Source: an uncultured Erysipelotrichaceae bacterium (GTDB taxonomy: Bacteria; Bacillota_I; Bacilli_A; RF39; UBA660). From it: DNA of 64,000 nucleotides. The stretch spans positions 5,160-69,159 of the forward strand of contig CACZFH010000014.1 of NCBI GenBank assembly GCA_902780395.1, given 5' to 3'. Made by a program: the position numbers and the translations under genes. The notes under the pieces were generated by a model. The model worked only from the letters and a program-made list of their open reading frames with translations. It was not told the origin of the DNA and made no database searches. Positions 3,328 to 25,263 of the stretch are shown here, piece by piece; the first letter of the stretch is position 1, and each line of letters opens with the position of its first letter.

Positions 3328-4693
3328 AGAACTAACACTTGCAAGTTTATTTGACGGAAGTGGTGGTTTTCCATTGGGTGGGATGTTAGCAGGTATTAAA
3401 CCTATATGGAGTTCAGAGATAGAGCCATTTGCAATAAGGGTAACAACTAAAAGATTATCCAAAGTAAAGCATTATGGTGATATCACTAAAATAAAAGGAA
3501 ATGAAGTAGAGCCCGTAGATATAATTACATTTGGAAGTCCATGCCAGGATATGTCGATAGCGGGTAAAAGAGCAGGATTAGACGGAAGTAGGTCTAATCT
3601 TTTTTATGAAGCAATAAGAGTAGTAAAAGAAATGAGGTGTGCAACAAATGGAGAAAAGCCAAGATATATTGTCTGGGAAAATGTCACAGGAGCCTTCTCT
3701 TCAAACAAAGGAGACGACTTCAAAAGTGTCCTTGAAGAAATCTGCAAAGTCAAACATCAAGAATTGTCTATTCCTAAACCTGCAAAGTGGCAACAAGCAG
3801 GAACGATTATGGGAGATGATTTCTCAATCGCATGGCGAGTATTTGATGCTCAGTTTTGGGGAGTTCCCCAGAGAAGAAATCGTATCTACCTTGTCGCAGA
3901 TTTTGGAGGAAACAGTGCCTCAAAAATACTATTTGAGTCAGAGGGCTTGTCAGGGTATTCTAAGGAGAGCTTCAAGTCGTGGCAGGACTCTTCCAGAAAC
4001 ATTGAAGATAGCATTAGAGAATCAGGCAAGTTAGATTTATTTGAAAATCACTCGCAAGATTTAAGATATAAAGGACCATTGAATGTTGCACCAACAGTTC
4101 TTTCAACTTATGGAACTGGTGGCAACAATCAACCATTTATTGTTCATTCAAAAAACTACGATGTAAGATTAACATCTGAAGGTACAAAGAATGCAAGGAA
4201 TAATGTGTATGAAACAGAAACATCTAGAACTCTTGATACTAATGGAAACTTTCCAAATTCAAATCAAGGTGGAGTAGCAATTGTTTATTCGACAAGCAAG
4301 AGTTCATTTCATATTAGAGCAAGTGAAAATCTAGCTAATACATTAATTGCAACTGACTATATGGATCCTCCAATAGTGAATGATAAGTTGAGAGTTAGAA
4401 GACTTACACCAAAAGAATGTGCAAGACTTCAAGGTTTTCCTGATTGGTGGTGTTCTAATCTAGAAACAAAAGAACCAACCGAAGAAGATATTGATTATTG
4501 GAGAGAAGTATTTAATGAAAGTTCTAAAGCAGAAGGAAAAAATAAAAAAGAAAAGACAGATAGCCAAATAATTAAATGGCTACAAAATCCTCATTCTGAT
4601 TCAGCTGAATATAAGTTATGGGGAAATGGTGTAGCACTTCCATGTGTTTACTTTGTTCTATCTGGAATCGAGTATTACGCACACATCACTTGA
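3320..4693 (+). CDS. dcm: DNA (cytosine-5)-methyltransferase
   Basis: C5-MTase motifs LFDGSGGF (I), GSPCQDMSIAG (IV), ENV (VI), QRRNRIYLV (VIII) and GNGVALP (X). The start is ambiguous: TTG 3314 or ATG 3320. Confidence 0.9.
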   Translation: MDKELTLASLFDGSGGFPLGGMLAGIKPIWSSEIEPFAIRVTTKRLSKVKHYGDITKIKGNEVEPVDIITFGSPCQDMSIAGKRAGLDGSRSNLFYEAIRVVKEMRCATNGEKPRYIVWENVTGAFSSNKGDDFKSVLEEICKVKHQELSIPKPAKWQQAGTIMGDDFSIAWRVFDAQFWGVPQRRNRIYLVADFGGNSASKILFESEGLSGYSKESFKSWQDSSRNIEDSIRESGKLDLFENHSQDLRYKGPLNVAPTVLSTYGTGGNNQPFIVHSKNYDVRLTSEGTKNARNNVYETETSRTLDTNGNFPNSNQGGVAIVYSTSKSSFHIRASENLANTLIATDYMDPPIVNDKLRVRRLTPKECARLQGFPDWWCSNLETKEPTEEDIDYWREVFNESSKAEGKNKKEKTDSQIIKWLQNPHSDSAEYKLWGNGVALPCVYFVLSGIEYYAHIT

Positions 4694-4719
4694 TAAATAT
4701 GTGTTTTAGAGTGATATAT
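4687..4719 (+). promoter_or_regulatory. Copy A of the conserved promoter-like element CACTTGA-N14-AGAGTGATATAT
   Basis: Exact motif, ending 22 nt upstream of ATG 4742. Contains a TTGATA -35-like hexamer and a TG-containing AT-rich -10-like end. Confidence 0.6.
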
Positions 4720-4741
4720 GTAATGCAAGGAGGTAAACAAT

Positions 4742-4960
4742 ATGATGTTTCCAAAAAAAGAAATCGTTGAAAGAATACGAAAAGAATATCCAAAAGGAAC
4801 AAGAGTAAGGCTTATAAAGATGGATGATATGCAGGCTCCACCACTTGGAACAGAAGGGACTGTAATTGGTGTAGATGATACTGGATCAATTATGGTTGCT
4901 TGGGACAATGGTAGTTCTTTAAATGTTATTTACAATGTCGACAAATGTATCAAAATATAG
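4742..4960 (+). CDS. DUF4314-like small protein
   Basis: YPKGTRVRLIKMDDMQAPPLGTEGTVIGVDDTGSIMVAWDNGSSLNV is the typical DUF4314 pattern from clostridial phages and conjugative elements. Strong RBS AAGGAGG. Confidence 0.6.
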   Translation: MMFPKKEIVERIRKEYPKGTRVRLIKMDDMQAPPLGTEGTVIGVDDTGSIMVAWDNGSSLNVIYNVDKCIKI

Positions 4961-4989
4961 CAAAAAATATACACTTATTTTGCCTAAAT

Positions 4990-5022
4990 GACTTGATATA
5001 TATGCCTTTTAGAGTGATATAT
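4990..5022 (+). promoter_or_regulatory. Copy B of the conserved promoter-like element (GACTTGA-N14-AGAGTGATATAT)
   Basis: Same architecture and spacing as copy A, 45 nt upstream of ATG 5068. Confidence 0.6.
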
Positions 5023-5067
5023 ATACATAACAAAAAAGGAAATCTTATATAAAGAAAGGTGAGTAAG

Positions 5068-6024
5068 ATGAGTGAGAAAGCATTAAGACAATCCGAAAAG
5101 ATGAAAGAACAGACAATCGGAGTAGAAGTTGAAATGAATAATATAACCAGAGAAAAAGCCGCAAAGATAGCTGCAGAGCTATTTGGAACAGGCAGATACG
5201 AATATACAGATAGTAGAAATGGATATTTAACATGGTCTGCCTGGTCAAGCGACGGGAGAGAATGGAAGTTTCAAAGGGATACAAGTATCCTAGGAGTTGA
5301 AAGTAAAAAGTGCGAATTAGTAACACCAATATTGAAATATGAAGATATTGAACTTTTACAAGAACTAATAAGACTTTTAAGAAAAGCTGGAGCAAAGAGT
5401 GATGCAACAAGGGGATGTGGAGTACACATTCACATTGGAGCAGATGGACATACACCACAAACAATGAGAAACCTAGCAAACATTATGGCAAGTCACGAAT
5501 TGCTAATAGCTGATGCATTGAAACTTGATTCAACAAGAATAAGCAGATATTGTAGAACAGTTAATCCTGAGTTCTTAAGAGTACTTAATAGAAGAAAACC
5601 AAAAACAATGTCAAAGTTTGCAGATATTTGGTATCAAACACAGAATGCGAGTTATTCAAGAAATCAGCATTACAACGATAGCAGATACCATATGCTAAAC
5701 TTCCATGCAACCTTTACTAAAGGAACTATTGAATTTAGATTATTTCAATTTGATCCACCAGCAGAAGGAAAGCAAAATGGACTTCATGCAGGTCAATTAA
5801 AAAGCTACATTCAATTTTGCCTAGCATTAAGTCAAATGGCAAAGGATGTGAAATTTGCATCAGCTAAAAGACAACAAAACGAAAATCCAAAGTATGCAAT
5901 GAGAACATGGTTATTAAGATTAGGATTTATAGGAGATGAGTTTAAAACAGCAAGAGATGTATTAACCAAAAGACTTGAAGGTGATACAGCATTTAGACAA
6001 AAAAGAGTAAGCTCAAGGAGTTAG
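5068..6024 (+). CDS. Amidoligase_2-family (glutamine-synthetase-like) putative amidoligase
   Basis: IGVEVEMN..., WKFQRDTSI...CELVTPIL, RGCGVHIHIG and GTIEFRLFQ match the amidoligase family pattern. ATG 5068 is preferred over GTG 5059. Confidence 0.7.
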   Translation: MSEKALRQSEKMKEQTIGVEVEMNNITREKAAKIAAELFGTGRYEYTDSRNGYLTWSAWSSDGREWKFQRDTSILGVESKKCELVTPILKYEDIELLQELIRLLRKAGAKSDATRGCGVHIHIGADGHTPQTMRNLANIMASHELLIADALKLDSTRISRYCRTVNPEFLRVLNRRKPKTMSKFADIWYQTQNASYSRNQHYNDSRYHMLNFHATFTKGTIEFRLFQFDPPAEGKQNGLHAGQLKSYIQFCLALSQMAKDVKFASAKRQQNENPKYAMRTWLLRLGFIGDEFKTARDVLTKRLEGDTAFRQKRVSSRS

Positions 6025-6105
6025 CCTCCTGGTACTTTAATCGGCAGCGTTTGCTGCCTTAAGGTGGTAGAAGGGTAATCCCTTGAATAGAAAGGAGGAT
6101 ATCTT

Positions 6106-6582
6106 ATGAGGAGAAGATATTATATTGCTTACGGTAGTAACTTAAATGTAGGACAGATGAAATTCAGATGTCCAACTGCAAGGATTATTGGTACAGCAAT
6201 TATTAAGGATTACGAATTATTGTTTAAAGGAAGTAAAACAGGCTCTTATCTAACCATTGAAAAAAAGAAGGGTGAGGAAGTTCCAGTTGTAATATGGGAA
6301 ACTCAAGAAAGTGATGAACAAGCACTTGATAGATATGAAGGATGCCCACAATTCTATTACAAAAAAGAAATGATAATTCCTATTAAAGGGATAAAATCAA
6401 AAAAGACCAGAATTAGAAAAGCTTATGTTTATATAATGCATGAAGATAGAAAATTAGGTATTCCAAGCGTTCATTATTTAAGAACTTGTTATGAAGGCTA
6501 TATGAGATTTAATTTTGATCCATTGTATCTATTAGATGCACTAGATAAAAGTAGGAGGTTAGATCATGAAGAAGGAAATTAA
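6106..6582 (+). CDS. Gamma-glutamylcyclotransferase (GGCT/AIG2-like)
   Basis: YYIAYGSNLNVGQMKFRCPTARIIG...YELLF...LDRYEG is the GGCT/AIG2 signature. RBS AAGGAGG. Confidence 0.7.
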   Translation: MRRRYYIAYGSNLNVGQMKFRCPTARIIGTAIIKDYELLFKGSKTGSYLTIEKKKGEEVPVVIWETQESDEQALDRYEGCPQFYYKKEMIIPIKGIKSKKTRIRKAYVYIMHEDRKLGIPSVHYLRTCYEGYMRFNFDPLYLLDALDKSRRLDHEEGN

Positions 6583-6766
6583 TAGGAAAAGAAAATGTCC
6601 ACAATGTGGAGCAGAATATCAAGGACATCCTGCGATTTCAAGAAAAGATAATAAAACACCAATATGTCCAGACTGTGGAACAAGAGAGGCTCTTGAATCA
6701 ATAGGAATTGATATTAAAGAACAAGAGAAAATTATTAGAACAATACATAGAACTCAAGAAAAATAA
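6566..6766 (+). CDS. Small zinc-ribbon protein
   Basis: CPQCG...x21...CPDCG forms a four-Cys ribbon. It overlaps the GGCT stop by 17 nt, suggesting translational coupling. Confidence 0.55.
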   Translation: MKKEINRKRKCPQCGAEYQGHPAISRKDNKTPICPDCGTREALESIGIDIKEQEKIIRTIHRTQEK

Positions 6767-6790
6767 AACTAAATAAAATATATTTTTTGA

Positions 6791-6818
6791 AAGCACTTCG
6801 ATTATGGAGTGCTTTTTG
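6791..6818 (+). terminator. Rho-independent terminator closing the accessory wedge
   Basis: Stem AAGCACTTC/GGAGTGCTT followed by TTTTT. It contains the ATG at 6809, so that start is rejected. Confidence 0.75.
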
Positions 6819-6838
6819 CGTTGAAGGGAGATGATAAA

Positions 6839-8440
6839 TTGAGAAAGTTGAAGGACTATAAACCAACGAAGTTTATGGCTAAGACAAGTTACTATGATGA
6901 AGAGGCAGCAGATTTTGCTGTTGCCTTTATTGAGAGCCTTTGCCATACAAAAGGTACGTGGGCAGGAAAACACTTTGAATTAATCGACTGGCAAGAACAA
7001 ATCATCAGAGACATCTTTGGAATACTTAAACCAAATGGATATAGGCAATTCAATACAGCTTATGTTGAAATCCCTAAAAAGCAAGGTAAATCAGAACTAG
7101 CTGCGGCGGTAGCTCTTTTATTAACCTGTGGTGATGGAGAAGAAAGGGCTGAAGTGTATGGATGTGCTGCAGATAGAAACCAAGCAAAAATTGTATTTGA
7201 TGTTGCAGTAGATATGGTTAAGTTCTGTCCTGCACTTTCAAGAAGAGTAAAAATATTAGAGTCACAAAAGAAATTAATATATAAACCAACAAATAGTTCA
7301 TACCAAGTGTTATCAGCAGATGTTGCAAACAAGCATGGTTTCAATACTCACGGAGTTATATTTGACGAATTACATACACAACCAAATAGGAAACTATACG
7401 ATGTAATGACTCAAGGTTCTGGAGATGCCAGAATGCAACCATTGTATTTTCTGATAACTACTGCTGGAAATGATACTAATTCAATTTGTTATGAAATACA
7501 TCAAAAAGCTAAAGACATTGAAAAAGGAAATAAGATTGACCCTACATTTTATTCAGTTATTTATGGTGCTGATGAAAGCGAAGATTGGACTGATCCAAAA
7601 GTATGGAGAAAAGCAAATCCATCACTTGGAATAACAGTAGCAGAAGAAAAAGTAAGAGCCGCTTGTGAGTCAGCAAAGCAAAATCCTGGAGAAGAAAATG
7701 CATTCAGGCAGTTGCGATTAAATCAATGGGTTAAACAATCAGTAAGATGGATGCCAATGGATAAATGGGATTTATGTGCTGGAAAAATAAGAGAAGAAGA
7801 ACTAGAAGGTCGTGTGTGTTATGGAGGACTAGACTTGTCATCTACAACAGATATAACGGCTTTTTCTTTAGTATTTCCACCAAGAGATGATGAAGAAGAA
7901 TACATTATTCTACCTTACTTTTGGATACCAGAAGATACTCTTGATTTAAGAGTTAAAAGGGATCATGTTCCTTACGATGTATGGCAAAGGCAAGGATACC
8001 TTCAAACAACAGAAGGAAATGTAGTTCATTATGGATATATTGAAAAGTTTATAGAAGAACTTGGAAAGAAGTTCAATATCAGAGAAATAGCATTTGATAG
8101 ATGGGGAGCAGTTCAAATGGTTCAAAATTTAGAGAACATGGGATTTACTGTTGTTCCATTTGGACAGGGATTTAAAGACATGAGTCCACCAACTAAAGAA
8201 TTGATGAAATTAACTCTTGAAAAGAAATTAGTTCACGGAGGTCATCCAATCTTAAGATGGAATATGGACAATGTCTTTATTAAAACTGACCCTGCTGGAA
8301 ACATCAAAGCAGACAAAGAAAAATCTACTGAAAAGATAGATGGAGTAATAGCAACAATCATGGCACTTGATAGAGCAATAAGATGTGGCAGCACATTAAG
8401 TGAAAGTGTCTATGATAACAGAGGAATTTTATTCTTATAG
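6839..8440 (+). CDS. Terminase large subunit (Terminase_1 type)
   Basis: Size, position and Walker-A-like VEIPKKQGKS, FDELH and nuclease-half motifs. TTG 6839 has RBS GGGAG 8 nt upstream; ATG 6875 is an alternative start. Confidence 0.85.
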   Translation: MRKLKDYKPTKFMAKTSYYDEEAADFAVAFIESLCHTKGTWAGKHFELIDWQEQIIRDIFGILKPNGYRQFNTAYVEIPKKQGKSELAAAVALLLTCGDGEERAEVYGCAADRNQAKIVFDVAVDMVKFCPALSRRVKILESQKKLIYKPTNSSYQVLSADVANKHGFNTHGVIFDELHTQPNRKLYDVMTQGSGDARMQPLYFLITTAGNDTNSICYEIHQKAKDIEKGNKIDPTFYSVIYGADESEDWTDPKVWRKANPSLGITVAEEKVRAACESAKQNPGEENAFRQLRLNQWVKQSVRWMPMDKWDLCAGKIREEELEGRVCYGGLDLSSTTDITAFSLVFPPRDDEEEYIILPYFWIPEDTLDLRVKRDHVPYDVWQRQGYLQTTEGNVVHYGYIEKFIEELGKKFNIREIAFDRWGAVQMVQNLENMGFTVVPFGQGFKDMSPPTKELMKLTLEKKLVHGGHPILRWNMDNVFIKTDPAGNIKADKEKSTEKIDGVIATIMALDRAIRCGSTLSESVYDNRGILFL

Positions 8441-8456
8441 GAGGAGATGATTAAAT

Positions 8457-9806
8457 ATGGGAATTTTTAGTGGCATATTTAGGTCGAGGGATGCACCTAA
8501 AGATAGAACGCCAGGAAGTAACTATAGCTTTTTTATGGGAGGATCAACAAGTGGCAAGAGAGTAAATGAACGCTCTGCTATGCAAATGACTGCAGTTTAT
8601 AGCTGTGTGAGAATTTTGTCGGAGGCAGTAGCTAGTTTGCCATTGCATTTCTACAAGTATGATGAAAACGGAAGTAAAAAGAAAGCAATAGAACATCCAT
8701 TGTATTTTCTATTGCATGATGAACCTAATCCAGAGATGACGTCTTTTGTGTTTAGAGAAACACTTATGACTCATCTTTTATTATGGGGTAATGCATATGC
8801 ACAAATCATAAGAAATGGAAAAGGCGAAATCATAGCATTGTATCCACTTATGCCAGATAGAATGACAGTTAATAGAGATGAAAAGGGAAAATTATACTAC
8901 GAATATTTAACAAGTACAGATGAGGCTCCAATCAATAAAGGTGTAACAGTTAGACTTAGTGCAACGGATGTCCTACATATTCCTGGATTAGGATTTGATG
9001 GACTGGTTGGGTATTCTCCAATTGCAATGGCTAAAAATGCGATTGGTCTTGCAATAGCAGCAGAAGAATATGGTAGCAAGTTTTATGCGAATGGTGCTGC
9101 ACCTAGTGGTGTGTTAGAACATCCAGGAACATTAAAAGATCCTACCAAAGTAAGAGAAAGTTGGAATGAAACTTTTGGAGGCAGTCAAAATTCTCACAAA
9201 GTAGCTGTACTTGAAGAAGGTATGAAATATACTCCTATTTCTATTTCTCCAAATGAAGCTCAATTTTTAGAAACTCGTAAATTTCAAATAAATGAGATAG
9301 CTCGAATTTTTAGAGTCCCACCACATATGGTTGGTGACCTTGAAAAGTCGAGTTTTTCTAATATAGAGCAACAATCGTTGGAGTTTGTGAAATATACACT
9401 TGACCCTTGGGTTTCAAGATGGGAGCAAACACTTATAAGGTCGTTATTAACTAAAGAGGAAAAGAAAAAATATTTTATTAAGTTTAATGTTGATGGCTTA
9501 CTTCGTGGAGATTATCAAAGCAGAATGAGTGGATATAGCATTGGTATACAAAATGGATTCATGTCACCAAATGATGTAAGAGAACTTGAAAACCTAGATT
9601 TAATTCCAGATGAAGAAGGTGGAAACACATACATGGTAAACGGAAACATGATGCCAATCACTGAAGTAGGTGCAGCATATAGACCTAAAGGAGAGGAGGA
9701 AAAAAATGAAGAAGTTTTGGAATTGGAAGAACAAAACGATAACAAATCAGGAAACCGAAACTCAAAGTCAAGAAAGAATACTGTTTCTAAATGGAACAAT
9801 AGCTGA
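8457..9806 (+). CDS. Portal protein (HK97 family)
   Basis: About 450 aa directly after TerL, with a typical HK97 portal pattern (WGNAYAQI, FRVPPHMVGD). Confidence 0.85.
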   Translation: MGIFSGIFRSRDAPKDRTPGSNYSFFMGGSTSGKRVNERSAMQMTAVYSCVRILSEAVASLPLHFYKYDENGSKKKAIEHPLYFLLHDEPNPEMTSFVFRETLMTHLLLWGNAYAQIIRNGKGEIIALYPLMPDRMTVNRDEKGKLYYEYLTSTDEAPINKGVTVRLSATDVLHIPGLGFDGLVGYSPIAMAKNAIGLAIAAEEYGSKFYANGAAPSGVLEHPGTLKDPTKVRESWNETFGGSQNSHKVAVLEEGMKYTPISISPNEAQFLETRKFQINEIARIFRVPPHMVGDLEKSSFSNIEQQSLEFVKYTLDPWVSRWEQTLIRSLLTKEEKKKYFIKFNVDGLLRGDYQSRMSGYSIGIQNGFMSPNDVRELENLDLIPDEEGGNTYMVNGNMMPITEVGAAYRPKGEEEKNEEVLELEEQNDNKSGNRNSKSRKNTVSKWNNS

Positions 9807-10449
9807 AGAGTCATGGTTCGATGATGAAGTAACACCAGCATTATTTAAAGATGAATTAAATAGTGGTGAGGGAGACATTACCGTATGGATTAATTCTCCA
9901 GGTGGTGACTGCATTGCAGCAGCTCAAATCTACAATATGCTGATGGATTACAAAGGTAACGTAACAGTAAAAATAGATGGAATTGCAGCAAGTGCAGCAT
10001 CAGTAATTGCAATGGCTGGAAACAAAGTAATCGTATCTCCAGTATCAATGATTATGATCCACAATCCTGCAACAATAGCAGCAGGAGATACAGCAGAAAT
10101 GCAAAAAGCCATAGCTATGCTTGATGAAGTTAAGGAATCAATCATCAATGCATATGAAATCAAAACAGGCTTATCAAGAGCAAGGTTATCACATCTTATG
10201 GATGCTGAAACTTGGATGGACGCTAATAGTGCCATTGAACTTGGATTTGCAGATGAAATAATGCAAAGAAACACAGAAGAGGATGAGCTTGAAGTTCCTA
10301 ATGTAAGCATGACGTTTTCTCGTGCATCTGTTACTAACTCATTAATTGAGAAGATGGCAGAAAAGTGCAAGATAGCACAGAAAACAAAAAATGAAATAGC
10401 ATCAGACAGTTTATTAGAACGTCTGGAATTAATAAGAAATTGGAGGTAA
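9706..10449 (+). CDS. ClpP-like prohead maturation protease
   Basis: INSPGGDCIAAAQIYNML...SAASVIAMAG...IMIHNP is ClpP/S14-like. Start moved to ATG 9706, which has RBS GGAGGA. Confidence 0.85.
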   Translation: MKKFWNWKNKTITNQETETQSQERILFLNGTIAEESWFDDEVTPALFKDELNSGEGDITVWINSPGGDCIAAAQIYNMLMDYKGNVTVKIDGIAASAASVIAMAGNKVIVSPVSMIMIHNPATIAAGDTAEMQKAIAMLDEVKESIINAYEIKTGLSRARLSHLMDAETWMDANSAIELGFADEIMQRNTEEDELEVPNVSMTFSRASVTNSLIEKMAEKCKIAQKTKNEIASDSLLERLELIRNWR

Positions 10450-10454
10450 TAAAA

Positions 10455-11615: not shown

Positions 11616-11645
11616 TCTTCAAAATAATAAAGGAGGTAAATAGCA

Positions 11646-11960
11646 GTGATTGAAGAGTTATTAACTAAAGTAAAACAAAATCTTATATTAGAACATTCAG
11701 TAGATGATGAATTACTAATACAATTCATCACTGCTGCAATCTCTTATGCAGAAAGCTATCAGCATATAGAAGAAGGATACTATCAAGAAAATGCAATGTC
11801 AGAAACAACAAAACAAGCAATTATTATGCTTGTTAGTCATTTCTATGAAAGTAGGGATGGTTCAACAGGTGGTTTCTTTGCTGACAATGTAAATGCATCA
11901 AGCCAAGTATGGAACACAGTAAATCTACTATTAAGACTTAATAGAGATTGGAAGGTGTAG
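11646..11960 (+). CDS. Head-tail connector (gp6-like, Phage_connect_1)
   Basis: About 100 aa after the capsid gene, GTG start with RBS AGGAGG, typical pattern ...ISYAESY...LVSHFYESR. Confidence 0.6.
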   Translation: MIEELLTKVKQNLILEHSVDDELLIQFITAAISYAESYQHIEEGYYQENAMSETTKQAIIMLVSHFYESRDGSTGGFFADNVNASSQVWNTVNLLLRLNRDWKV

Positions 11961-11963
11961 TTC

Positions 11964-13061: not shown

Positions 13062-13685
13062 ATGGCTACAATAGGTTTAGATAAATTATATTATTCAAAA
13101 ATTACTGAAGATGCATCTGGTAATGAAACATATGGAACACCAACTATTCTTGCAAAAGCTATATCTGCAGAACTTTCTGTTGAACTTGCAGAGGCAACTC
13201 TTTATGCAGATGATGTTGCAGCAGAAATAGTAAAGGAATTTAAAAGTGGTACTTTAACACTAGGTGTTGATGATATTGGAATTAATGTAGCATCAGAATT
13301 AACTGGAGCTCAAATAGATATCAATAATGTTTTAATATCAGGTGGTCAAGATGCTGGAAGCCCAGTTGCTATTGGATTTAGAGCAAAAAAATCAAATGGT
13401 AAATATAAATATTACTGGCTTTATAGAGTTAAGTTTGGAATACCTGCAGCAAGTCTTGCAACAAAAGGTGATTCAATCACATTCTCTACGCCATCTATTG
13501 AAGGTACAGTACTTTGTAGAAATAAACCAGATAGCAATGGAAAGCATCCTTGGAAAGCTGAAGTTACTGAAGGTGACACAGGTGTAAGCGATGCAACTAT
13601 TACTGGTTGGTATGATGCTGTATATGAACCAACATATACAAGAAACAGTACAAAAACAACTACAACAACTACTGGCGATAAATAA
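13062..13685 (+). CDS. Major tail protein (phi13 family)
   Basis: MATIGLDKLYY...TYGTP...AISA...ATLYADD pattern, about 200 aa, immediately before the chaperone pair. Confidence 0.75.
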   Translation: MATIGLDKLYYSKITEDASGNETYGTPTILAKAISAELSVELAEATLYADDVAAEIVKEFKSGTLTLGVDDIGINVASELTGAQIDINNVLISGGQDAGSPVAIGFRAKKSNGKYKYYWLYRVKFGIPAASLATKGDSITFSTPSIEGTVLCRNKPDSNGKHPWKAEVTEGDTGVSDATITGWYDAVYEPTYTRNSTKTTTTTTGDK

Positions 13686-13699
13686 AATGGAGGTAAGTC

Positions 13700-14271: not shown

Positions 14272-14285
14272 GGAGGTGAGTTATA

Positions 14286-19209: not shown

Positions 19210-19220
19210 GAGGTGAGTAG

Positions 19221-20642
19221 ATGGCAAGTAGTGGTTCATTCAATACAAGTGCATATAGTGTAAGATATTTAGTATTTAGTTGGAGCATAGCATCACAGGA
19301 TATTGCAAATAATAGGACAACAATAAACTGGTCATTAAAGGGTGCTGGTGGTTCAACTACATCTTGGTATAAAGCAGGTAACTTTAAAGTAGTTATAAAT
19401 GGAAGTACAGTATATGAAACAGGACAAGATGATAGAATTACTCTTTATGGTGATACGGTTGTTGCAACAGGACAAGCGACAATAGGACATAACTCTGATG
19501 GTACGAAATCTTTTAGTGCGAGTGCTGAGGCTGGTATTTATACTTATGCAAGAAATGTCAGTGGTAGTGGTTCGTGGTCTTTAACGAGTATACCAAGACA
19601 GGCTAACTTGACATCAGCACCTGACTTTAATGATGAACAAAATCCATCGATAGGTTATTCAAATCCTGCAGGGAATAGTGTATCTAACTTGGATGCTTGT
19701 ATCTCACTAACAGGATCAAGAGATGATATTGCATATAGAGGTATTTCTAAAACTGGCTCGTCTTATACATTTAATTTAACAGAGACTGAAAGGAATGTTT
19801 TAAGAAATGCCTGCACAACAAGTAATAGTAGAAGTGTTATTTTTTATGTTAGAACGATAATAGGTGGAAACACATTCTATTCAACAATAACAAAGACACT
19901 TTCGATAATTAATGGGAATCCAACCTTTTCATCAAGTAATGTTTCATATAAGGATAACAATAGTACAACAACAGCAGTTACAGGAAATAATCAGCATATG
20001 GTTCAGAGTTTATCAAAGTTATTAGTTACAATAACAAGTGCAACCGCAAAGAAAGGTGCAAGTATTACTAAATATGATGCAACAATAAATAATGTGACTA
20101 AAAGCATAACCAGTGCAGGTAATATCGACTTTGGAACAATTAATTCATCTAGCAATTTAACATTGTCCGTAAAAGTAACAGATAGTAGAGGTAATACAAC
20201 TACAGCTACTAAAACTGTTACTTTTTTAGCATGGTCGTTGCCTACTGCTGTAATATCTTTGAAAAGAAAAAATAACTATGAAAATGAAACGTATTTAAAA
20301 GTAAATGCATCTTATTCAAGCGTTAATTCTAAAAATACGCTTACAATTAAATATCAATTTAAGAAAACAACGGATAGTTCTTACTCATCATTAACTACAA
20401 TAAATAATAATACTCAAATAACAATATCAAAAGATAAGAACTATGCGTGGGATTTCAAGATAGTATTAACTGATGCTTTTGGAACAACAACTTATAATTT
20501 AACATTAGCAAAAGGAAAATTTATTTTATTTGTTGATACTAAAAAACTATCAGTTGGAGTCAATTGCTTTCCATCGAATAGTGAATCATTAGAAGTTAAT
20601 GGATGCCAAGTATTAGAGTATGATGTTATTTCAAGTTGGTAG
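19221..20642 (+). CDS. Tail fibre / receptor-binding protein candidate (DUF859-like N-terminus)
   Basis: Its position after Tal supports the call. It is rich in Ser/Thr/Asn and looks beta-rich. The N-terminal pattern is YLVFSWSIASQDIANNRTTINWSL. Confidence 0.45.
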   Translation: MASSGSFNTSAYSVRYLVFSWSIASQDIANNRTTINWSLKGAGGSTTSWYKAGNFKVVINGSTVYETGQDDRITLYGDTVVATGQATIGHNSDGTKSFSASAEAGIYTYARNVSGSGSWSLTSIPRQANLTSAPDFNDEQNPSIGYSNPAGNSVSNLDACISLTGSRDDIAYRGISKTGSSYTFNLTETERNVLRNACTTSNSRSVIFYVRTIIGGNTFYSTITKTLSIINGNPTFSSSNVSYKDNNSTTTAVTGNNQHMVQSLSKLLVTITSATAKKGASITKYDATINNVTKSITSAGNIDFGTINSSSNLTLSVKVTDSRGNTTTATKTVTFLAWSLPTAVISLKRKNNYENETYLKVNASYSSVNSKNTLTIKYQFKKTTDSSYSSLTTINNNTQITISKDKNYAWDFKIVLTDAFGTTTYNLTLAKGKFILFVDTKKLSVGVNCFPSNSESLEVNGCQVLEYDVISSW

Positions 20643-20651
20643 GAGGTATCT

Positions 20652-21071
20652 ATGAGTAAAGCTATTCAATTAAAAAATAGGTCTGGAGAAAAAATATATC
20701 CTTGTCCTTATTATCCAGTTGGAAGTATTTATTTATCTGTTAATAGCACAAATCCAAGTACTATATTTGGCGGATCATGGGAGCAAATAAAAGATAGATT
20801 TCTACTAGCCTGTGGGAGTACATATTCTAATGGAAGTACTGGTGGAGAAAGTACTCATAAATTAACCATTGATGAAATGCCTTCTCATAATCATGGAGTT
20901 GGTTCTAGAGATCCAAGTGCTCATTTATCTCCTAGTGGTAGTGCAATTGGTGCAGAATATCTTGGAAACTATACATATAGTTCGTTTTCAACTTCATACA
21001 CAGGTGGAAGTAAAGCTCATAATAATATGCCACCTTATTTAGCAGTTTATGTGTGGAAGAGGGTGTCATAG
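20652..21071 (+). CDS. Baseplate/fibre accessory protein, shared MSK N-terminal module (copy 1)
   Basis: MSKAIQLKNRSGEKIYPCPYYPVGSIYLSVNSTNPSTIFGGSWEQI, then GGESTHKLTIDEMPSHNHG, which is tail-collar-like. Confidence 0.5.
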   Translation: MSKAIQLKNRSGEKIYPCPYYPVGSIYLSVNSTNPSTIFGGSWEQIKDRFLLACGSTYSNGSTGGESTHKLTIDEMPSHNHGVGSRDPSAHLSPSGSAIGAEYLGNYTYSSFSTSYTGGSKAHNNMPPYLAVYVWKRVS

Positions 21072-21671
21072 ATGAGTAAGGGAATAAGATTTAAAAATAA
21101 AAATAATGAGCATATTTATCCATGTGCTTATATGCCAGTAGGTGCTATTTATAAATCTACTTCAAACACAAATCCTTCAACAATTTTTGATGGTACGTGG
21201 GCATTGGTTCATAGTGGATATGAGAGACAACAGATAGGGAGCCAAGTATTGCATCCAGGATTAAGTGGTACTGGAAATGTAGGAAAAACAAATATATTAG
21301 GTGCTTATGATTATTCTTTAATAAGCGGACTTTTTAGTAATATAGCAGTTCCTTCTGGATGCCATAAAGAATATAAATTAACCTTTCAAGGTAGAACTGG
21401 TGGAGATAATAAAATAACAATGTATATAAACAATATTGCAACTAACAGTATTGGAACGTGGTCATCAGAGACCTTTAGGTATATTGGTTCAAGTAAGTTT
21501 TTTAAGGAGTCAGAAATAACTTTAGAAACAACAATGGGATACTCAAGTCCAGGATGCAATCTTAAATATCAAGTGACGGGTTCATCAAATAACTGGAGTT
21601 TTTATAATGTAACGATTAGTGGATTTATAGTTACTGATGTACAAATATATACTTGGAGGAGAACGGCATGA
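21072..21671 (+). CDS. Fibre accessory protein, shared MSK N-terminal module (copy 2)
   Basis: MSKGIRFKNKNNEHIYPCAYMPVGAIYKSTSNTNPSTIFDGTW is paralogous to the N-terminus of the previous gene. The C-terminus is unrelated. Confidence 0.5.
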   Translation: MSKGIRFKNKNNEHIYPCAYMPVGAIYKSTSNTNPSTIFDGTWALVHSGYERQQIGSQVLHPGLSGTGNVGKTNILGAYDYSLISGLFSNIAVPSGCHKEYKLTFQGRTGGDNKITMYINNIATNSIGTWSSETFRYIGSSKFFKESEITLETTMGYSSPGCNLKYQVTGSSNNWSFYNVTISGFIVTDVQIYTWRRTA

Positions 21672-22195
21672 GTAAAGCTATAAAATTTAGAAATAATACG
21701 TACTTGGATACATCAAGTATCAGTCATAACAAACATAATTTTAAAGATAAATTTCAAGAAATTAAAATGAATACGGGAGTTATGAATAATAAAAATTGGG
21801 TAAAAATATGTAATTTTAAATTTGATAGTCATAATCAAGGGGAATTTGCATATTTTAAGATATTTATAGGTGCGGGAAATAATGGTAATACAAATCAAAA
21901 TGCCTATATTGATTTAATAATGCAGCTAGGATGGACTGGAAGTAATGAAGGTCGATTGGGTTGCAATGCAATACTGTATCCATTAGAAACATCGTTTAGT
22001 ACAAGTAATACTAATGTGAAAGTAATAAGCAAATCAAATATAGATTACGATTTATGGGTATATAGTACACAGACCTATTGTAAGCCTAATTATATTGCAA
22101 ATGTATCTGAAAGAGTTACAGTGACACCAAAATGGGAATTATCAGCAAGTGAACCATCAGGGACTTCGTGTAGTTTATCATACATTCAAAGATAG
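21668..22195 (+). CDS. Fibre-region protein sharing only the first ~10 residues (MSKAIKFRNN)
   Basis: ATGA overlap with the previous gene and RBS GGAGGAG. No recognisable domain. Confidence 0.45.
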   Translation: MSKAIKFRNNTYLDTSSISHNKHNFKDKFQEIKMNTGVMNNKNWVKICNFKFDSHNQGEFAYFKIFIGAGNNGNTNQNAYIDLIMQLGWTGSNEGRLGCNAILYPLETSFSTSNTNVKVISKSNIDYDLWVYSTQTYCKPNYIANVSERVTVTPKWELSASEPSGTSCSLSYIQR

Positions 22196-22206
22196 GAGGA
22201 AAATGA

Positions 22207-22602
22207 ATGAAATCAATTTTTAATTTTATAACAGGTACGGTACTGACAACAGTAGTGTACTTTTTAGGAGGCTTGGATGTGGCACTTAAAACATTGTTAG
22301 TTTTCATATTACTCGATTATATTACAGGAGTATGTGAGGCAATAACAAAGAAAAAGCTCAATAGCATCATTGGTGCTAAAGGAATAGTAAAGAAAATAGG
22401 TTACTTGATAATAGTTGCTCTATCGGTTCAGTTAGACAGAATAACTGGAGAAACTGGTGCAATTAGAACTCTTGTAATCTATTTTTTTGTAGCAAACGAA
22501 GGAATTTCAATTCTAGAGAATTGGGGCTCTATGGGGTTGCCACTACCTAAAGTAATCATTGAAACATTGGAACAATTAAAAAGTAAGAATGGAGGAGAAT
22601 AA
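22207..22602 (+). CDS. Holin (Phage_holin_4 / TcdE-like)
   Basis: Three predicted TM segments, LDYITGV...KKLNS...KKIGY pattern, directly before the endolysin. Confidence 0.75.
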   Translation: MKSIFNFITGTVLTTVVYFLGGLDVALKTLLVFILLDYITGVCEAITKKKLNSIIGAKGIVKKIGYLIIVALSVQLDRITGETGAIRTLVIYFFVANEGISILENWGSMGLPLPKVIIETLEQLKSKNGGE

Positions 22603-22603
22603 C

Positions 22604-23498
22604 ATGGAAAGAAAAGGTCTAGATATATCTTCATACCAAAGAGGAATCAACTTTGATGTAGTAAAGTCAAATGTTGATTTTTTAATTTTAAGAGCTGGTT
22701 TTACTGGTTGGGGTGGAGATGGCACTAATAAAAATAAAGATAATTGTTTTGAGGATTTTTACAATCAATCAAAAGCAAGAGGAATACCTAAGAGGAAAGC
22801 AATTTGAATATCCAATTTATATGGATGTTGAAGAAGATAGACACCAACAAGTAGGAAAATCAAGAATGGCAGATGCAATAAAAGGTTTCTGTGAATATTT
22901 AGAAAATAAAGGATACTATGTAGGTATTTATGCTAATAGTAATTACTTTAATAATTTCATAGATACTGCAAAATTATCTATGTATGATAAATGGCTTGCA
23001 GTATGGACTAGCAATAAGCCTTCATTTAAATATGGTGATTATGGTTTGTGGCAAAATTCATCAAGTGGTTATATTTCTGGAATGAGAGTTGATACAGATT
23101 ATGCATATAAAGATTATCCAACTATAATTAAAAAAGCTGGATTAAATGGTTATTTAAAAGGAACACCAGAAACTCCAAAAATCGAGCCAACAAAAAAGAG
23201 CAATGATGAAATTGCCACAGAAGTCATTAATGGAAATTGGGGTAATGGTGCTGATCGAAAAAATGCACTTACTAATGCGGGTTATGATTATGCTGTAATT
23301 CAATCAATAGTAAATGCTAGATTAGGAGTTACACCAAAACCATCTGCAAAATATCACACAGTAGTAAAGGGTGATACTTTATGGGCTATTGCTAAAAAAT
23401 ATTATGGTGATGGAAACAAATACCCAGAGATAGCAAGAGCTAATAATATAGCAAATCCAAACATCATAAGCGTAGGTCAAAAATTATTAATACCATAA
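22604..23498 (+). pseudogene. GH25 muramidase endolysin with CW_7 and LysM domains, disrupted by an internal deletion and frameshift
   Basis: The N-terminal part GLDISSYQRGINFDVVK...ARGIP ends at TGA 22805-22807. The rest (LRGKQFEYPIYMDVEED..., GNWGNGADRKNALTNAGYDYAVIQSIVN = CW_7, HTVVKGDTLWAIAKKY = LysM) is in another frame. The roughly 25-30 aa normally lying between GIP and FEYP in GH25 enzymes are missing. Confidence 0.6.
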
Positions 23499-23501
23499 CA
23501 A

Positions 23502-23534
23502 AAGGGCAGCTTATTCGCTGTCCTTATTTTTTTT
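23502..23534. terminator. Bidirectional terminator between the endolysin and the convergent gene
   Basis: 9-bp stem AAGGGCAGC/GCTGTCCTT (one G-U pair) followed by a T-run. Confidence 0.7.
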
Positions 23535-23855
23535 GCTCATTTTTTCAATGAACTCTCCATACTCGGTATAGTCTTCAAATAACTTTTTGTCTAATTCTTC
23601 AATGTCTTTTCTTGTGTAGTGAACTTTGTTTTCCCAATCACGATGTAAAGATTTAAAAAGTTTAGGAGGTTCACTTTGTTCTAACTCTGCTAAAAAATTA
23701 TGTCTTGATTTAATTTGTTCTTCTAATGCTTTGATGGAAATTTCGGTAAATTTATTATTTTGTATTTCCATTAAATCTAAAAGTTTTTTGTTTAAATCTT
23801 GTGATTCTTTTAGTGCTTCGATTAGCTCTTCTTTAGACAATTTTTCATAGTCCAT
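23511..23855 (-). CDS. Coiled-coil hypothetical protein (moron)
   Basis: Minus-strand ORF. Start trimmed to MDYEKLSKEEL, which has RBS AGGAG. No recognisable domain. Confidence 0.5.
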   Translation of the reverse strand: MDYEKLSKEELIEALKESQDLNKKLLDLMEIQNNKFTEISIKALEEQIKSRHNFLAELEQSEPPKLFKSLHRDWENKVHYTRKDIEELDKKLFEDYTEYGEFIEKMSKKNKDSE

Positions 23856-23978
23856 ACAATTACTCCTTTCCTTTTTTGCTTGATTCATAAATAGTATACC
23901 ATAAAAATGGAAATTCGGCACGGAAGGTCACTTATTTTTTGTAAAAAAAATGGAATAATATCTATTAGGGTGATTGAT

Positions 23979-24212
23979 ATGAAAGAATATAATTTCAATA
24001 AAAACATCAAGTCAGTCATATGCCAAAATATAAAAAAGTACAGAAACGAAAAGAATGTAAGACTGATGGATTTAGCTGAAGCTGTGGATGTAACTCCTGA
24101 TCATTTGAAAAGGATTGAATCTGAAAATGACAGAAACAATATATCATTAACAACCCTATATAAGATATCCATAGTTTTAGATGTCAGTATTGAAAAATTT
24201 TTTGAAGAATAA
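23979..24212 (+). CDS. XRE-family HTH transcriptional regulator
   Basis: IKKYRNEKNVRLMDLAEAVDVTPDHLKRIESE...ISLTTLYKISIVLDVSIEKFF is an HTH_3 pattern. Confidence 0.75.
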   Translation: MKEYNFNKNIKSVICQNIKKYRNEKNVRLMDLAEAVDVTPDHLKRIESENDRNNISLTTLYKISIVLDVSIEKFFEE

Positions 24213-24245
24213 AGAGATATGAAAGCAAAATCATATCTCTTTTAA
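24212..24245. terminator. Bidirectional terminator
   Basis: Perfect 11-bp stem AAGAGATATGA/TCATATCTCTT followed by TTT. Confidence 0.75.
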
Positions 24246-24512
24246 TTTTAATGGATTTTCTTCAACTATTTCTAATTTATACTTTTCTTTCAATATTTGT
24301 TTTATATCAGTGATAACTTTATCAGTATTTTCAAAATAGATATTGAAAACATCTGCTGCCGAATTAAAATGCTGTTTCAATGATGACGTGCCAAGAACAT
24401 CTAATGAATAACCTCTTGCCAGATAAAATGCAATATAAGGTGCTGCAACATTCTCTTCAATATAACGTTCGCAATCAAGCACAAATTTATTTTGATTTAT
24501 TTCATCATACAT
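24231..24512 (-). CDS. Hypothetical protein (93 aa)
   Basis: Minus-strand ORF with RBS GGAGGA 8 nt upstream and its own copy (D) of the conserved motif. Confidence 0.55.
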   Translation of the reverse strand: MYDEINQNKFVLDCERYIEENVAAPYIAFYLARGYSLDVLGTSSLKQHFNSAADVFNIYFENTDKVITDIKQILKEKYKLEIVEENPLKLKEI

Positions 24513-24534
24513 AAAATTAATCCTCCTAGCTTTT

Positions 24535-24567
24535 ATATATCACTCTTTCTTTATTAAAAGTCAAGTG
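24535..24567 (-). promoter_or_regulatory. Copy D of the conserved promoter-like element, minus strand
   Basis: The reverse complement reads CACTTGA-CTTTTAATAAAGAA-AGAGTGATATAT, ending 22 nt upstream of the start at 24512. Confidence 0.6.
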
Positions 24568-24647
24568 ATGATAAAAGCTATTTTTTTTTGTTTATAGGTT
24601 AAAAATCACATACTAATTTTTGACTGTTATTTAGGAGGTAATAGTCA

Positions 24648-25076
24648 ATGGATGAAATACAAAGACAAAAAATTAGAAAGTTAAGAAGTCAAGGATATGG
24701 GTATTTAAGAATATCATCTTTGCTAGAAATTTCTCCAAATACAATTAGATCCTTTTGTAAAAAGGAAAATATAGCAGGATACATTAAAACTGGAGAACAA
24801 TTAAAGGGAAAAGATAATCTCCAAGTGTGTAAACAATGTGGAAAGAAGTTCTATCAAATAGCAGGAAGAAAAAATAAAACTTTTTGTTCAGATAGTTGTT
24901 GTAAGGTTTATTGGACTCTTCATAAAGATAAGCAACGTAGGTTAATTCCTCAAAAGTATAACTGCATCATTTGCAATAAAGAATATTTTGAATATCCATC
25001 AAGGAATAGAAAGTATTGTTCCAGGGAGTGTTACTACATTAGCAAACGCAAGGTGGTGGACTCTGATGAAAATTAA
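24648..25076 (+). CDS. HTH (sigma-70 region-4-like) plus double zinc-ribbon protein, recombinase-associated
   Basis: The N-terminus IRKLRSQGYGYLRISSLLEISPNTIRSF is an HTH. Two motifs follow: CKQCG...FCSDSCC and CIICN...YCSRECY. It lies upstream of the serine recombinases. Confidence 0.55.
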   Translation: MDEIQRQKIRKLRSQGYGYLRISSLLEISPNTIRSFCKKENIAGYIKTGEQLKGKDNLQVCKQCGKKFYQIAGRKNKTFCSDSCCKVYWTLHKDKQRRLIPQKYNCIICNKEYFEYPSRNRKYCSRECYYISKRKVVDSDEN

Positions 25077-25230
25077 AAATGAAATAGCATATCAAATTAC
25101 AATGAATTATTTAAAAGATATGCTTGAAAAGAAGATTATTTCAATTGAAGAATACAATCAAATGATGGTTGAATTTAAAAAGAAATATACACCAAAAGTT
25201 AGTCATTTATTCTTTGAAATAGCCCAATAA
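25066..25230 (+). CDS. Small helical protein, recombinase-associated (possible directionality factor)
   Basis: MKIKNEIAYQITMNYLKDMLEKKIISIEEYNQMMVEFKKKYTPKV. Its start overlaps the previous stop, and it sits directly before the recombinase promoter copy. Confidence 0.45.
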   Translation: MKIKNEIAYQITMNYLKDMLEKKIISIEEYNQMMVEFKKKYTPKVSHLFFEIAQ

Positions 25231-25263
25231 CACTTGATATATACATCATTTAGAGTGATATAT
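25231..25263 (+). promoter_or_regulatory. Copy C of the conserved promoter-like element
   Basis: CACTTGA-TATATACATCATTT-AGAGTGATATAT, 22-25 nt upstream of the recombinase start codons. Confidence 0.6.

Follow-up and report, generated by a model that had tools for sequence, protein, structure and literature searches.

An intergenic element conserved ahead of accessory and recombinase genes in phages of the Candidatus Heliusvirales/phi1207.3 lineage resembles a portable promoter cassette

In lambdoid phages, a moron is reportedly a gene that lies between core genes and brings its own promoter and terminator with it. T4-like phages carry promoter-early stem-loop (PeSL) cassettes, composed of an AT-rich region, a sigma-70-like promoter, a stem-loop and a Shine-Dalgarno (SD) sequence, which serve accessory genes as recombination linkers (Arbiol et al. 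2010, PMC2839356; Comeau et al. 2014, PMC4122927). In the T4 genes e (lysozyme), soc, 49 and I-TevI, an internal promoter lies within a hairpin region such that longer transcripts are translationally silent and internally initiated ones are open (PMC3014915). Here we describe an intergenic element with features of all three, found in a prophage that occupies the left part of a 64,000-nt stretch of DNA from an uncultured Erysipelotrichaceae bacterium (contig CACZFH010000014.1, positions 5,160 to 69,159; this whole stretch is called the window below). The element, with the composite motif CACTTGA-N14-AGAGTGATATAT, is best described as a combination of these known kinds: a moron promoter, a PeSL-like cassette and an insulation structure of the T4 e type. 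It is distinguished from them by its conservation through a whole and very widespread phage lineage, by a non-canonical -10 region and by a gene-specific, putatively anti-SD spacer.

When up to 3 mismatches were allowed, the composite motif matched the window exactly 4 times, compared to a mean of 0.06 matches in dinucleotide-preserving shuffles, 0 of 100 of which reached 4. The 14-nt gap between the two conserved blocks is the same in all four copies. The right block alone, at 2 mismatches, gave 12 matches with 17.7 expected and thus no enrichment, so the signal resides in the composite. A profile built from more than 170 related copies recovered no fifth copy in the window, the ~36 kb of low-GC host flank included. 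All four copies are intergenic, and each faces a start codon 22-45 nt downstream. Copy 1 (4687..4719, + strand) is placed to drive a DUF4314 gene, with 22 nt to the ATG at 4742; it consists of a -35-like TTGATA, a 17-nt spacer and GATATA(T), its left block contains the TGA stop codon (4691-4693) of the upstream C5-methylase gene, and its transcript is expected to start at about 4725-4729. Copy 2 (4990..5022, +) reads GACTTGA..., with G at position 1 of the composite, and is the best match to the family profile (E = 1.6e-13); it lies 45 nt from the amidoligase ATG at 5068 and probably drives that gene together with the GGACT and zinc-ribbon genes after it. Copy 3 (24535..24567, - strand) is the most divergent of the four, with TTGACT in the left block and GAAAGAG in place of TTTAGAG, and is placed to drive a 93-aa gene whose start at 24512 is 22 nt away. 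Copy 4 (25231..25263, +) begins directly after the stop codon of a SHOCT gene and is placed to drive two tandem large serine recombinase genes, with 22 nt to the SD-preceded ATG at 25286. The divergent pairing of copies 3 and 4 recurs in locus L013, and the synteny around copy 4 recurs in Streptococcus phage phi1207.3.

A first-pass annotation made from the letters alone had listed four identically spaced copies at these coordinates, 22-25 nt or 45 nt ahead of their start codons. The pattern scan bears out the copies and their spacing, and the measured distances for copies 1 to 4 are 22, 45, 22 and 22 nt. Two further regularities were seen within the copies. Copies 1, 2 and 4 carry a direct repeat, TGATA(A/T)AT, in their left and right blocks, 21 nt or two helical turns apart (4692-4699/4713-4720, 4995-5002/5016-5023 and 25236-25243/25257-25264), and there is also a short inverted repeat, CACT...AGTG. 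The promoter interpretation does not draw on either repeat.

Protein searches group the window phage with the "NatCom" phages deposited as Candidatus (Ca.) Heliusvirales and with phi1207.3, and near-identity DNA searches of both motif regions against the phage collection gave no match. Among the matches listed, an exact 18-base pattern was found at more than 120 genome loci and in more than 105 viral contigs. The genome loci were drawn from a collection holding one genome per species, in which ~17 chance matches would be expected under uniform base composition and more in AT-rich DNA. Positions left free in the search are conserved too: across 220 unique instances the consensus is AAAT(g)ACTTGATAtat..c.TTTAGAGTGATATAT(A/G)..., with a conserved C eight bases past the motif followed by an A-run, and A/T tracts recur every ~10-13 nt upstream of the -35-like block. 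An SD-preceded start codon lies 22-49 nt downstream in 222 of 248 copies and closer than 22 nt in none. The genes that follow these 248 copies belong to ~30 families. Large serine recombinases come after 90 copies, a single cluster, in which the amidoligases group with a ~232-aa protein, accounts for 73 downstream genes, 11 are DUF4314 genes, and ~27 other families are small (DUF7698, DUF6809, Nmad4 and DUF6329 among them). A profile search of the fetched loci added 55 copies outside the exact pattern, in which the left block takes the form CTTGCTAT or CTTGATAT, any base may stand before CTTG, and TTTAGAGTGATATAT is nearly unchanged. In phi1207.3, an exact motif stands between the small orf55, which occupies the position of the SHOCT gene, and the resolvase gene orf56, although the phi1207.3 recombinase is merely 43% identical to that of the window. 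The element is therefore conserved across the Ca. Heliusvirales/phi1207.3 lineage and always points at a gene.

The lineage also sets the limits of the distribution. A 61-nt copy used as query matched 78 phage records as against 9 plasmid records, the phages being streptococcal Javan and phi-Ssu phages, NatCom phages, Erysipelothrix phi1605 and one phage of Gardnerella (Actinomycetota). The Gardnerella copy occupies the same slot between methylase and TerL genes and looks genuine, as it comes from a phage of a cultured vaginal isolate; a gene there, in the slot that the ~232-aa protein fills elsewhere, is annotated "virulence protein". Phages of Bacillus, Staphylococcus and Listeria with related recombinases were not among the motif matches. 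Exact motifs were also found in bins labelled Bacteroidaceae, Alistipes, Spirochaetaceae, Anaerolineaceae and Promethearchaeota (loci including L033, L048, L052, L083 and L091); these probably reflect mis-binned contigs of Bacillota phages and not host range. Close relatives of the window phage have no motif copy in their 10 kb replication module. The first-pass annotation had claimed that the motif lies just upstream of accessory or recombinase genes, and the motif does mark these rather than replication or structural genes, in agreement with the copy-free replication module; the annotation had also proposed to check for random placement, and the four intergenic copies of the window and the 222 copies just ahead of start codons speak for directed placement. 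It is reasonable to regard the accessory genes and the recombinase genes as a co-regulated set. The idea of a regulon inside one prophage survives as a promoter class for these genes, and its local confinement does not, given the conservation across the lineage. We found no description of the motif in the Heliusvirales or phi1207.3 literature or in Rfam, which is not proof that it was never noted. The papers on Heliusvirales and phi1207.3 contain no mention of promoters or of the motif, control of the accessory genes or integrase of these phages is not known to have been described, and a literature search with the literal right block returned unrelated eukaryotic papers only. Rfam 15 gave no match in the window at gathering score and, for 4600-5120 at a permissive threshold, chance-level matches only.

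Transcription was examined in a homologous prophage of Clostridium tyrobutyricum (locus L073) that carries two motif copies, as no RNA run was found to contain the window's own sequence. Stranded raw reads from 4 runs and contigs from 4 further runs were used. At copy A (motif end 5307), sense coverage was zero over ~5122-5326 in the four stranded runs and set in at 5327-5333 in three of them, and independent RNA contigs begin at 5332 and 5341. At copy B (motif end 5859), runs X46 and X48 showed zero upstream RNA and an onset of coverage past the motif, and the two other runs showed low read-through and a step up at ~5877-5890. One RNA contig at copy B begins at 5867, which is +8 and coincides with the conserved C. 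It is clear from these data that transcription initiates downstream of both L073 copies. Because lysogen RNA begins just past the copies, with none across them in several runs, we read the motif as a promoter, in agreement with the promoter class suggested in the first-pass annotation. That no start codon lies closer than 22 nt is consistent with transcripts that start near +8 and need room for the shortest SD-bearing leader.

A second, stronger signal was seen farther along L073. A gene downstream of the motif-driven genes (6856-7400) is transcribed ~10 times more strongly, and fragment ends cluster at 6873-6878, inside a listed open reading frame (ORF) at 6708-7781. Either the start codon has been mis-called, it seems, or a gene expressed in lysogeny has an internal promoter here. 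We rejected this 5' end as a start belonging to the motif, as it lies inside another gene and is unrelated to the motif. Separately, the recombinase-upstream motif of locus L007 (1565-1588) contains, in the Streptococcus suis run X50, the junction of two RNA contigs whose depths differ 19-fold. A strong promoter could account for the junction, as could a break in assembly at motif sequence that is repeated or variable, and it was not used as evidence.

The cassette, which fills nearly the whole intergenic space, would consist, in order, of phased A/T tracts, a -35-like CTTG(A/C)TA, a gene-specific spacer ending in (C)TTT, and an almost invariant AGAGTGATATAT(A/G) block supplying the -10 function; the transcript would then start ~8 nt past the block, at the conserved C/A before the A-run, and continue into a short SD leader. 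A -35 hexamer close to TTGACA is present in essentially all copies as TTGATA, TTGACT or TTGCTA. At a spacer of 17 nt the -10 hexamer is GATATA, which has A at -11 and A at -7, and at 19 nt the sequence TGaTATAT(A/G) provides the TG of an extended -10 and no T at -7. Extended -10 (TGn) promoters are reportedly read by sigma-A in Gram-positive bacteria, and the element resembles them in the TG one base before the TATAT run (TGATATAT), in the -35-like TTGATA and in its AT-rich upstream region. It differs in that the TG register gives a 19-nt spacer with A or G at -7 and the 17-nt register loses the TG, so that neither fits the definition. A MerR-type mechanism, considered for the 19-nt spacer, was dismissed, as the spacer is not conserved. 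Rarer variants of the motif have a canonical -10, with CAATAT at 16 nt or TAATAT/GAATAT at 17 nt, and retain TTTAGAG; one of them is the copy before the DUF4314 gene in the close relatives L229 and L231. We favour a sigma-A geometry because these variants place their canonical -10 at 16-17 nt.

On this geometry, host sigma-A RNA polymerase would read the motif through TTGATA, the 17-nt spacer and GATATA, and we take it as the default reader of the invariant TTTAGAGTGATATAT block. Two observations lead us to this role. No other candidate is shared universally, the nine core genes of the lineage including no transcription factor (PMC9226167), and the promoters are active in a lysogen in which neighbouring phage genes are almost silent. 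Without T at -7 in the GATATA -10, the promoter probably has little intrinsic strength or is assisted by a further factor. Sigma-A alone also leaves the invariance of TTTAGAG unexplained, and a helper or gatekeeper is plausible because sigma-A by itself accounts for neither the invariance of TTTAGAGTG nor the missing -7 T.

Two phage proteins had been put forward as such a reader in the first-pass annotation, and neither is supported by comparison across the lineage. The fragment at 1-114, a DUF1492/sigma-region-4-like protein, has a putative recognition helix that differs strongly among the window phage, NatCom_3357 and phi1207.3, although the motif is identical in all three. Of 48 recombinase copies, just 35 have a detectable counterpart of the helix-turn-helix (HTH)/zinc-ribbon protein encoded at 24648 upstream of them, and phi1207.3 has no such gene annotated in the interval from lysin to orf55. 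The related argument that the right block is a poor sigma-A -10 is borne out by the register check and by a consensus scan that missed the window copies (both below). The proposal of a dedicated phage-encoded reader thus loses support for its two named proteins and keeps its observation that the right block extends beyond what a sigma-A -10 needs. A late promoter of the ArpU/RinA/DUF1492 type agrees poorly with the element: no copy lies in 115-718, which spans the DUF1492-like gene, HNH and terS, and co-conservation with the activator was not found, its HTH differing strongly in the three phages with identical motif. Alternative sigma sites (SigD, SigE/K/F/G, SigH, ECF and TcdR-type) and the CIRCE, NrdR and LexA operators were compared with the motif through their consensus sites, and none fits it. 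Streptococci are not known to have most of these sigma factors.

The first-pass description of the motif was right about its blocks and their spacing and had missed a property of the spacer, namely its gene-specific complementarity to the leader of the following gene. In L073, the variable spacer is complementary to the 5' untranslated region at both copies (CTGTGCTTT/AAAGCACAG at copy B and TGTGTTTT/AAAACACA at copy A). Permutation tests were chosen for the wider set because there is no fixed-register hairpin for column-wise counting of covariation. Among 97-102 non-redundant copies, the duplex of a spacer with its own leader has an energy of -7.3 to -7.4 kcal/mol, as against -5.9 kcal/mol for permuted pairs (z about -8), a difference reached by 0 of 5000 and 0 of 3000 permutations. 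In control pairings of spacers with coding windows, z was -1.0 and -1.9. Little signal came from the region upstream of the -35 block when it served as 5' arm, and pairing of the spacer with the 50 nt upstream of the motif was weaker (z = -3.4). The variable spacer positions 9-17 (counting the A of ACTTGA as position 1) gave z = -8.0 against the leader and 0.1 against the coding window on their own. The arms differ in sequence from copy to copy (for example GTGGCCG/CGGCCAC, CACCTTTT/AAAGGTG and TTCGCTTT/AAAGCGA), and of 38 strong stems, 28 place their 3' arm over the SD region. The pairing is confined to copies ahead of genes other than recombinases (n = 74, z = -8.5), with no such signal where a recombinase gene follows (n = 23, z = +0.4). 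Opening the SD-AUG region is predicted to cost 8.1 kcal/mol in read-through RNA and 3.2 kcal/mol in RNA starting at +8. With a foreign spacer in the read-through RNA the cost is 6.9 kcal/mol (native vs foreign, p = 3e-6), and at recombinase copies there is no spacer-specific effect.

These predicted energies suggest that read-through transcripts are translationally silenced at accessory-gene copies. In the late operon, the spacer of an accessory gene would act as an anti-SD sequence: RNA reading through from upstream would carry the spacer, fold over the ribosome-binding site and stay silent, while RNA from the cassette's own promoter would lack the spacer and be open for translation. The cassette would thus set the timing of accessory-gene expression, a low level in the lysogen included, and the passage of late transcription would not. 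Read-through is to be expected at copy 1, since the C5 cytosine methylase gene (3314..4693, +) runs into it with no terminator between them, and no plus-strand terminator-like site was found in 4500-6900, the interval that holds copies 1 and 2. The absence of pairing at recombinase copies fits the two terminator-like hairpins ahead of the recombinase module (+ strand; one behind the lysin gene at 23502-23525 and one behind the HTH_3 gene at 24211-24242), which should shield that module from late read-through. The stem at accessory copies looks like an anti-SD structure rather than a terminator because it has a large loop, is AT-rich, lacks a U-tract and is read through at L073 copy B in some runs.

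This arrangement is similar to that of T4 gene e in that the promoter lies inside the region encoding the 5' strand of a hairpin that sequesters the SD and AUG. The likeness extends to accessory-gene copies, where the pairing statistic, the 28 stems over the SD region and the difference in opening cost all point to such a hairpin, and not to recombinase copies. The T4 genes use a gp55-dependent late promoter as their internal promoter, and it is early transcripts that stay silent; in the cassette, late-operon RNA would be the silent species, and activity of the internal promoter is seen at least in the lysogen. The structure described here also differs in being a repeated, portable module used for dozens of unrelated genes, and it is known from computed complementarity.

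The cassette is modular at the level of the genome as well. Arrays of two to three co-oriented copies, with one gene after each, are common, and the DUF4314 cassette keeps the same 303-nt spacing between copies in L008, L041, L125, L139 and L162. The gene ahead of the amidoligase varies by phage and may be DUF4314, a 71-aa relative, the 232-aa protein, DUF6329 or others. The C5-methylase gene is present in the window and in L230 and absent from the otherwise near-identical L229 and L231, in which (13130-13190) the ParB-methylase gene directly precedes a variant motif (AGAGCAATATAT) and then DUF4314. Downstream of the motif the window is identical to L229, upstream the two are unrelated, and the switch point lies within the motif; in the few cases examined, the motif also bounds the insertions or deletions (indels) of the C5-methylase gene and of a 233-aa gene. 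Given its near-identity from phage to phage, the cassette would also serve as a crossover point for the swapping of accessory genes between them. As with PeSLs, the element is a short conserved intergenic cassette repeated in the phage genome, AT-rich upstream of the -35, with an SD and start codon at its 3' side; both have a sigma-70-like promoter and a stem-loop that possibly overlaps the -10, and both precede variable accessory genes at indel or replacement boundaries between related phages. PeSLs differ in belonging to lytic T4-like myoviruses, whereas the element described here is found in temperate, siphovirus-type Bacillota prophages. Its promoter departs from the sigma-70 consensus (no T at -7), its stem is AT-rich, gene-specific, large-looped and paired with the SD in place of a GC-rich terminator hairpin, it is conserved across phages of different bacterial classes, and one copy drives the integrase.

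The ~232-aa protein that follows many copies has no Pfam family and is the first gene after the motif in L002, L010, L029, L068, L089 and others. Its N-terminal 60 residues (MKMQINYNVTGPKRKALVNAISQELNAPVKYLGAPTFAYEV...) are identical in Bacillus, Heyndrickxia, Lysinibacillus and Dehalobacter, differ by one residue in L029, and differ by two to four residues in the Aneurinibacillus and Clostridium copies. Such near-identity of protein sequence suggests a recent spread of one phage or module across genera.

Taken together, the data lead us to hold, with modest confidence, that the element is a compact promoter cassette read by host sigma-A, with an anti-SD spacer at accessory genes and a role as crossover point. 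Several observations weigh against this reading. No hexamer with A at -11 and T at -7 was found 16-19 nt from the TTGATA block: the registers examined were TGATAT, GATATA, ATATAT and, at 19 nt, TATAT(A/G), none of which has both bases, and the base after ATATAT is T in 2 of 220 copies. A standard sigma-70 consensus scan detected 0 of the 4 window copies, and the near-invariance of TTTAGAGTG over very divergent phages exceeds that of ordinary promoters. The RNA evidence comes from homologous copies in another species and not from the window copies; its depth is low (~5-12) and the 5' ends are resolved to roughly +8..+26. Adaptor-ended contigs also occur at impossible start positions, which makes the +8 end suggestive only, and on account of both low depth and such contigs the start is placed within about +8..+26. 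The S. suis RNA data are uninformative, with contigs that break inside the motif, probably because repeated or variable sequence disturbs their assembly. As to the spacer, the stem has no fixed register, the native spacer contributes a modest ~1.2 kcal/mol on average, and the window copies fold weakly better than shuffles (z = -2.2, -1.0, -2.9 and +0.95). Antisense complementarity is significant as well (z = -6.6), and the complementarity may have a role at the DNA level or on the opposite strand.

Other explanations compete with this reading. The motif may be a dedicated promoter/operator, read or gated by a phage-encoded or prophage-expressed factor that recognises TTTAGAGTGATATAT and compensates or represses the defective -10. 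A right block conserved far beyond the needs of sigma-A in spite of the missing T at -7, the retention of TTTAGAG in variants whose -10 hexamer is altered, the low expression in the lysogen and a distribution restricted to one phage lineage (the 78 phage and 9 plasmid records) that reaches even a phage of Gardnerella all speak for such a factor. We nevertheless consider it doubtful, since no candidate is universal: the putative recognition helix of the DUF1492-like protein is not conserved, the HTH/zinc-ribbon protein is missing at about a quarter of recombinase loci and unannotated in the phi1207.3 interval, a Sigma70_r4_2 protein is present in some relatives only, and no transcription factor is among the nine core genes (PMC9226167). 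Immunity repressors, moreover, normally diverge fast, and the motif site does not. About equally doubtful is a composite of this idea with our own, in which a lineage-wide insulated cassette joins a non-canonical promoter, its TTTAGAGTGATATAT read or gated by a conserved factor, to a per-gene anti-SD spacer and to crossover points shared across bacterial classes. A third account, to which we likewise give a minority share of belief, regards the element as a recombination linker in the manner of PeSLs (PMC2839356, PMC4122927), with exchange and gene conversion homogenising the copies, so that promoter activity is real and is not the cause of conservation. The ~30 unrelated gene families, the co-oriented arrays with one gene per copy, the recurring 303-nt DUF4314 cassette, the motif-bounded indels of the C5-methylase and 233-aa genes and the one homology breakpoint inside the motif speak for a linker. 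However, the recombinase-upstream copy is syntenic from Streptococcus to Clostridia phages at 43% recombinase identity, and therefore looks like vertical conservation under purifying selection and not like recent exchange, and a conserved stretch of ~20 contiguous nt is short for homologous recombination.

The element could also act as RNA. Its functional unit would then be a hairpin of variable stem and conserved loop, carried by long late transcripts and recognised by a protein or RNase for processing, stabilisation or insulation, and its promoter-like features would be secondary. Gene-specific complementary stems do flank the conserved block, the sense-strand signal is slightly above the antisense signal, and copies lie within the late operon with no terminators ahead of them. 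We judge this improbable: the register of the 3' arm is not fixed and the loop varies from roughly 15 to 55 nt in the stems found, unlike a defined RNA motif, recombinase copies keep the conserved block without the stem, the -35-like block, the fixed 14-nt gap and the phased A-tracts are promoter features at the DNA level, lysogen RNA begins downstream of the block, and Rfam gave no match. Least probable of all, to the point that we would be surprised by it, is a binding site for the large serine recombinases themselves, as a pseudo-att site or autoregulatory operator. The 90 copies ahead of recombinase genes and the weak inverted repeat CACT...AGTG are in its favour; against it, most copies precede other genes far from any recombinase gene, no copy lies downstream of copy 4, where attR should be, the related recombinases of Bacillus, Staphylococcus and Listeria phages come without the motif, and the strict orientation, start-codon spacing and transcript starts fit a promoter. 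The element may finally be compared with the stoperators of cluster A mycobacteriophages and the start-associated sequences of cluster K, which are said to be short repeated intergenic sites. Stoperators are repressor sites that block elongation, with 20-30 per genome, and start-associated sequences act at translation starts. The motif is likewise a short, oriented, conserved sequence repeated in the small intergenic gaps of one lineage, and differs in its 1-4 copies per genome, its promoter geometry and the transcript starts mapped at homologous copies.

We return to the promoter cassette and its setting in the window. Positions 1 to ~28,200 are the right part of a prophage, with a GC content of 0.30-0.36, compared to 0.23-0.31 in the host flank. 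The left half of this region runs from a truncated DUF1492/sigma-region-4-like gene (1..114, +; a C-terminal fragment just upstream of HNH and terS) through HNH, TerS, SAM-synthetase-like, ParB-methylase and C5-methylase genes to copy 1 and DUF4314. Copy 2, amidoligase, GGACT, zinc-ribbon, TerL, structural genes and lysin follow, and the right end of the region holds HTH_3, the opposite-strand 93-aa gene with copy 3, the HTH/zinc-ribbon gene, SHOCT, copy 4 and the two recombinases. The DUF4314 gene (4742..4960, +; Pfam E = 1.6e-31) lies in a 303-nt cassette between copies 1 and 2. The Amidoligase_2 gene (5068..6024, +; Pfam E = 1.8e-55) has an SD-preceded ATG at 5068, and its mechanical ORF opens with GTG at 5059. 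It is followed by a GGACT/AIG2-like gene (6106-6582, +) and a small zinc-ribbon gene (6566-6766, +), which probably belong to the copy 2 transcription unit, since they have no motif copy of their own and no terminator-like site ahead of them. Like morons, these are accessory genes within the late region, with a promoter of their own and with expression from the prophage. They differ in sharing one conserved cassette, where classical morons each have an unrelated regulatory sequence and usually a terminator, and in having no terminator-like site among them.

Toward the right end, the 93-aa gene downstream of copy 3 (24231..24512, -) has no Pfam family. It converges with the HTH_3 gene (+), and the hairpin at 24211-24242, a perfect 12-bp stem between the two, looks like a bidirectional terminator dividing them. 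The HTH_38/double zinc-ribbon gene (24648..25076, +) is a frequent and not universal neighbour of recombinase copies. The small SHOCT_2 gene (25066..25230, +), which abuts copy 4, has its likely start at ATG 25066 within a mechanical ORF of 24988-25230. Recombinase 1 (25286..26650, +; ORF opening at 25268) has Resolvase, Recombinase and zinc-ribbon domains and is the protein that shares 43% identity with phi1207.3 orf56. Recombinase 2 (26514..28187, +, as mechanical ORF) has its likely start at ATG 26610 and overlaps the end of recombinase 1. In a profile of 26000-32000, GC drops from ~0.31 to 0.24 just past the second recombinase gene, and the prophage right end (attR) should therefore lie near 28.2 kb. 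No Pfam family matches the ORF that comes next (28306-28890, 194 aa).

Near-identical relatives carry an upstream replication module with DUF2800, an Enc34-type ssDNA-binding protein, PolA, a D5 primase and an SNF2 helicase, in agreement with the core genes reported for the lineage (PMC9226167). At the left edge of this module, L230 and L232 have a HamA (Hachiman defence) gene (1-1385, minus strand), in place of which L229 and L231 have a 178-aa Sigma70_r4_2 protein; the position looks like a second variable slot.

Macrolide and tetracycline resistance genes are carried by streptococcal members of the lineage such as phi1207.3 and phi-m46.1. Prophages of Ca. Heliusvirales have been reported in most human guts examined (PMC9226167, PMC11283538). 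For such phages, the ~45-nt signature is an annotation handle that locates the cargo slot and the integration module in new contigs, and the motif is a defined, testable control point for genes expressed in lysogeny. If it is read by host RNA polymerase alone, it would be a compact promoter for many Bacillota and useful in genetic tools. A non-canonical -10 conserved over such distances also poses a question about promoter recognition. The pairing of spacer and SD, if true, would extend the classic T4 mechanism to Gram-positive temperate phages as a reusable module.

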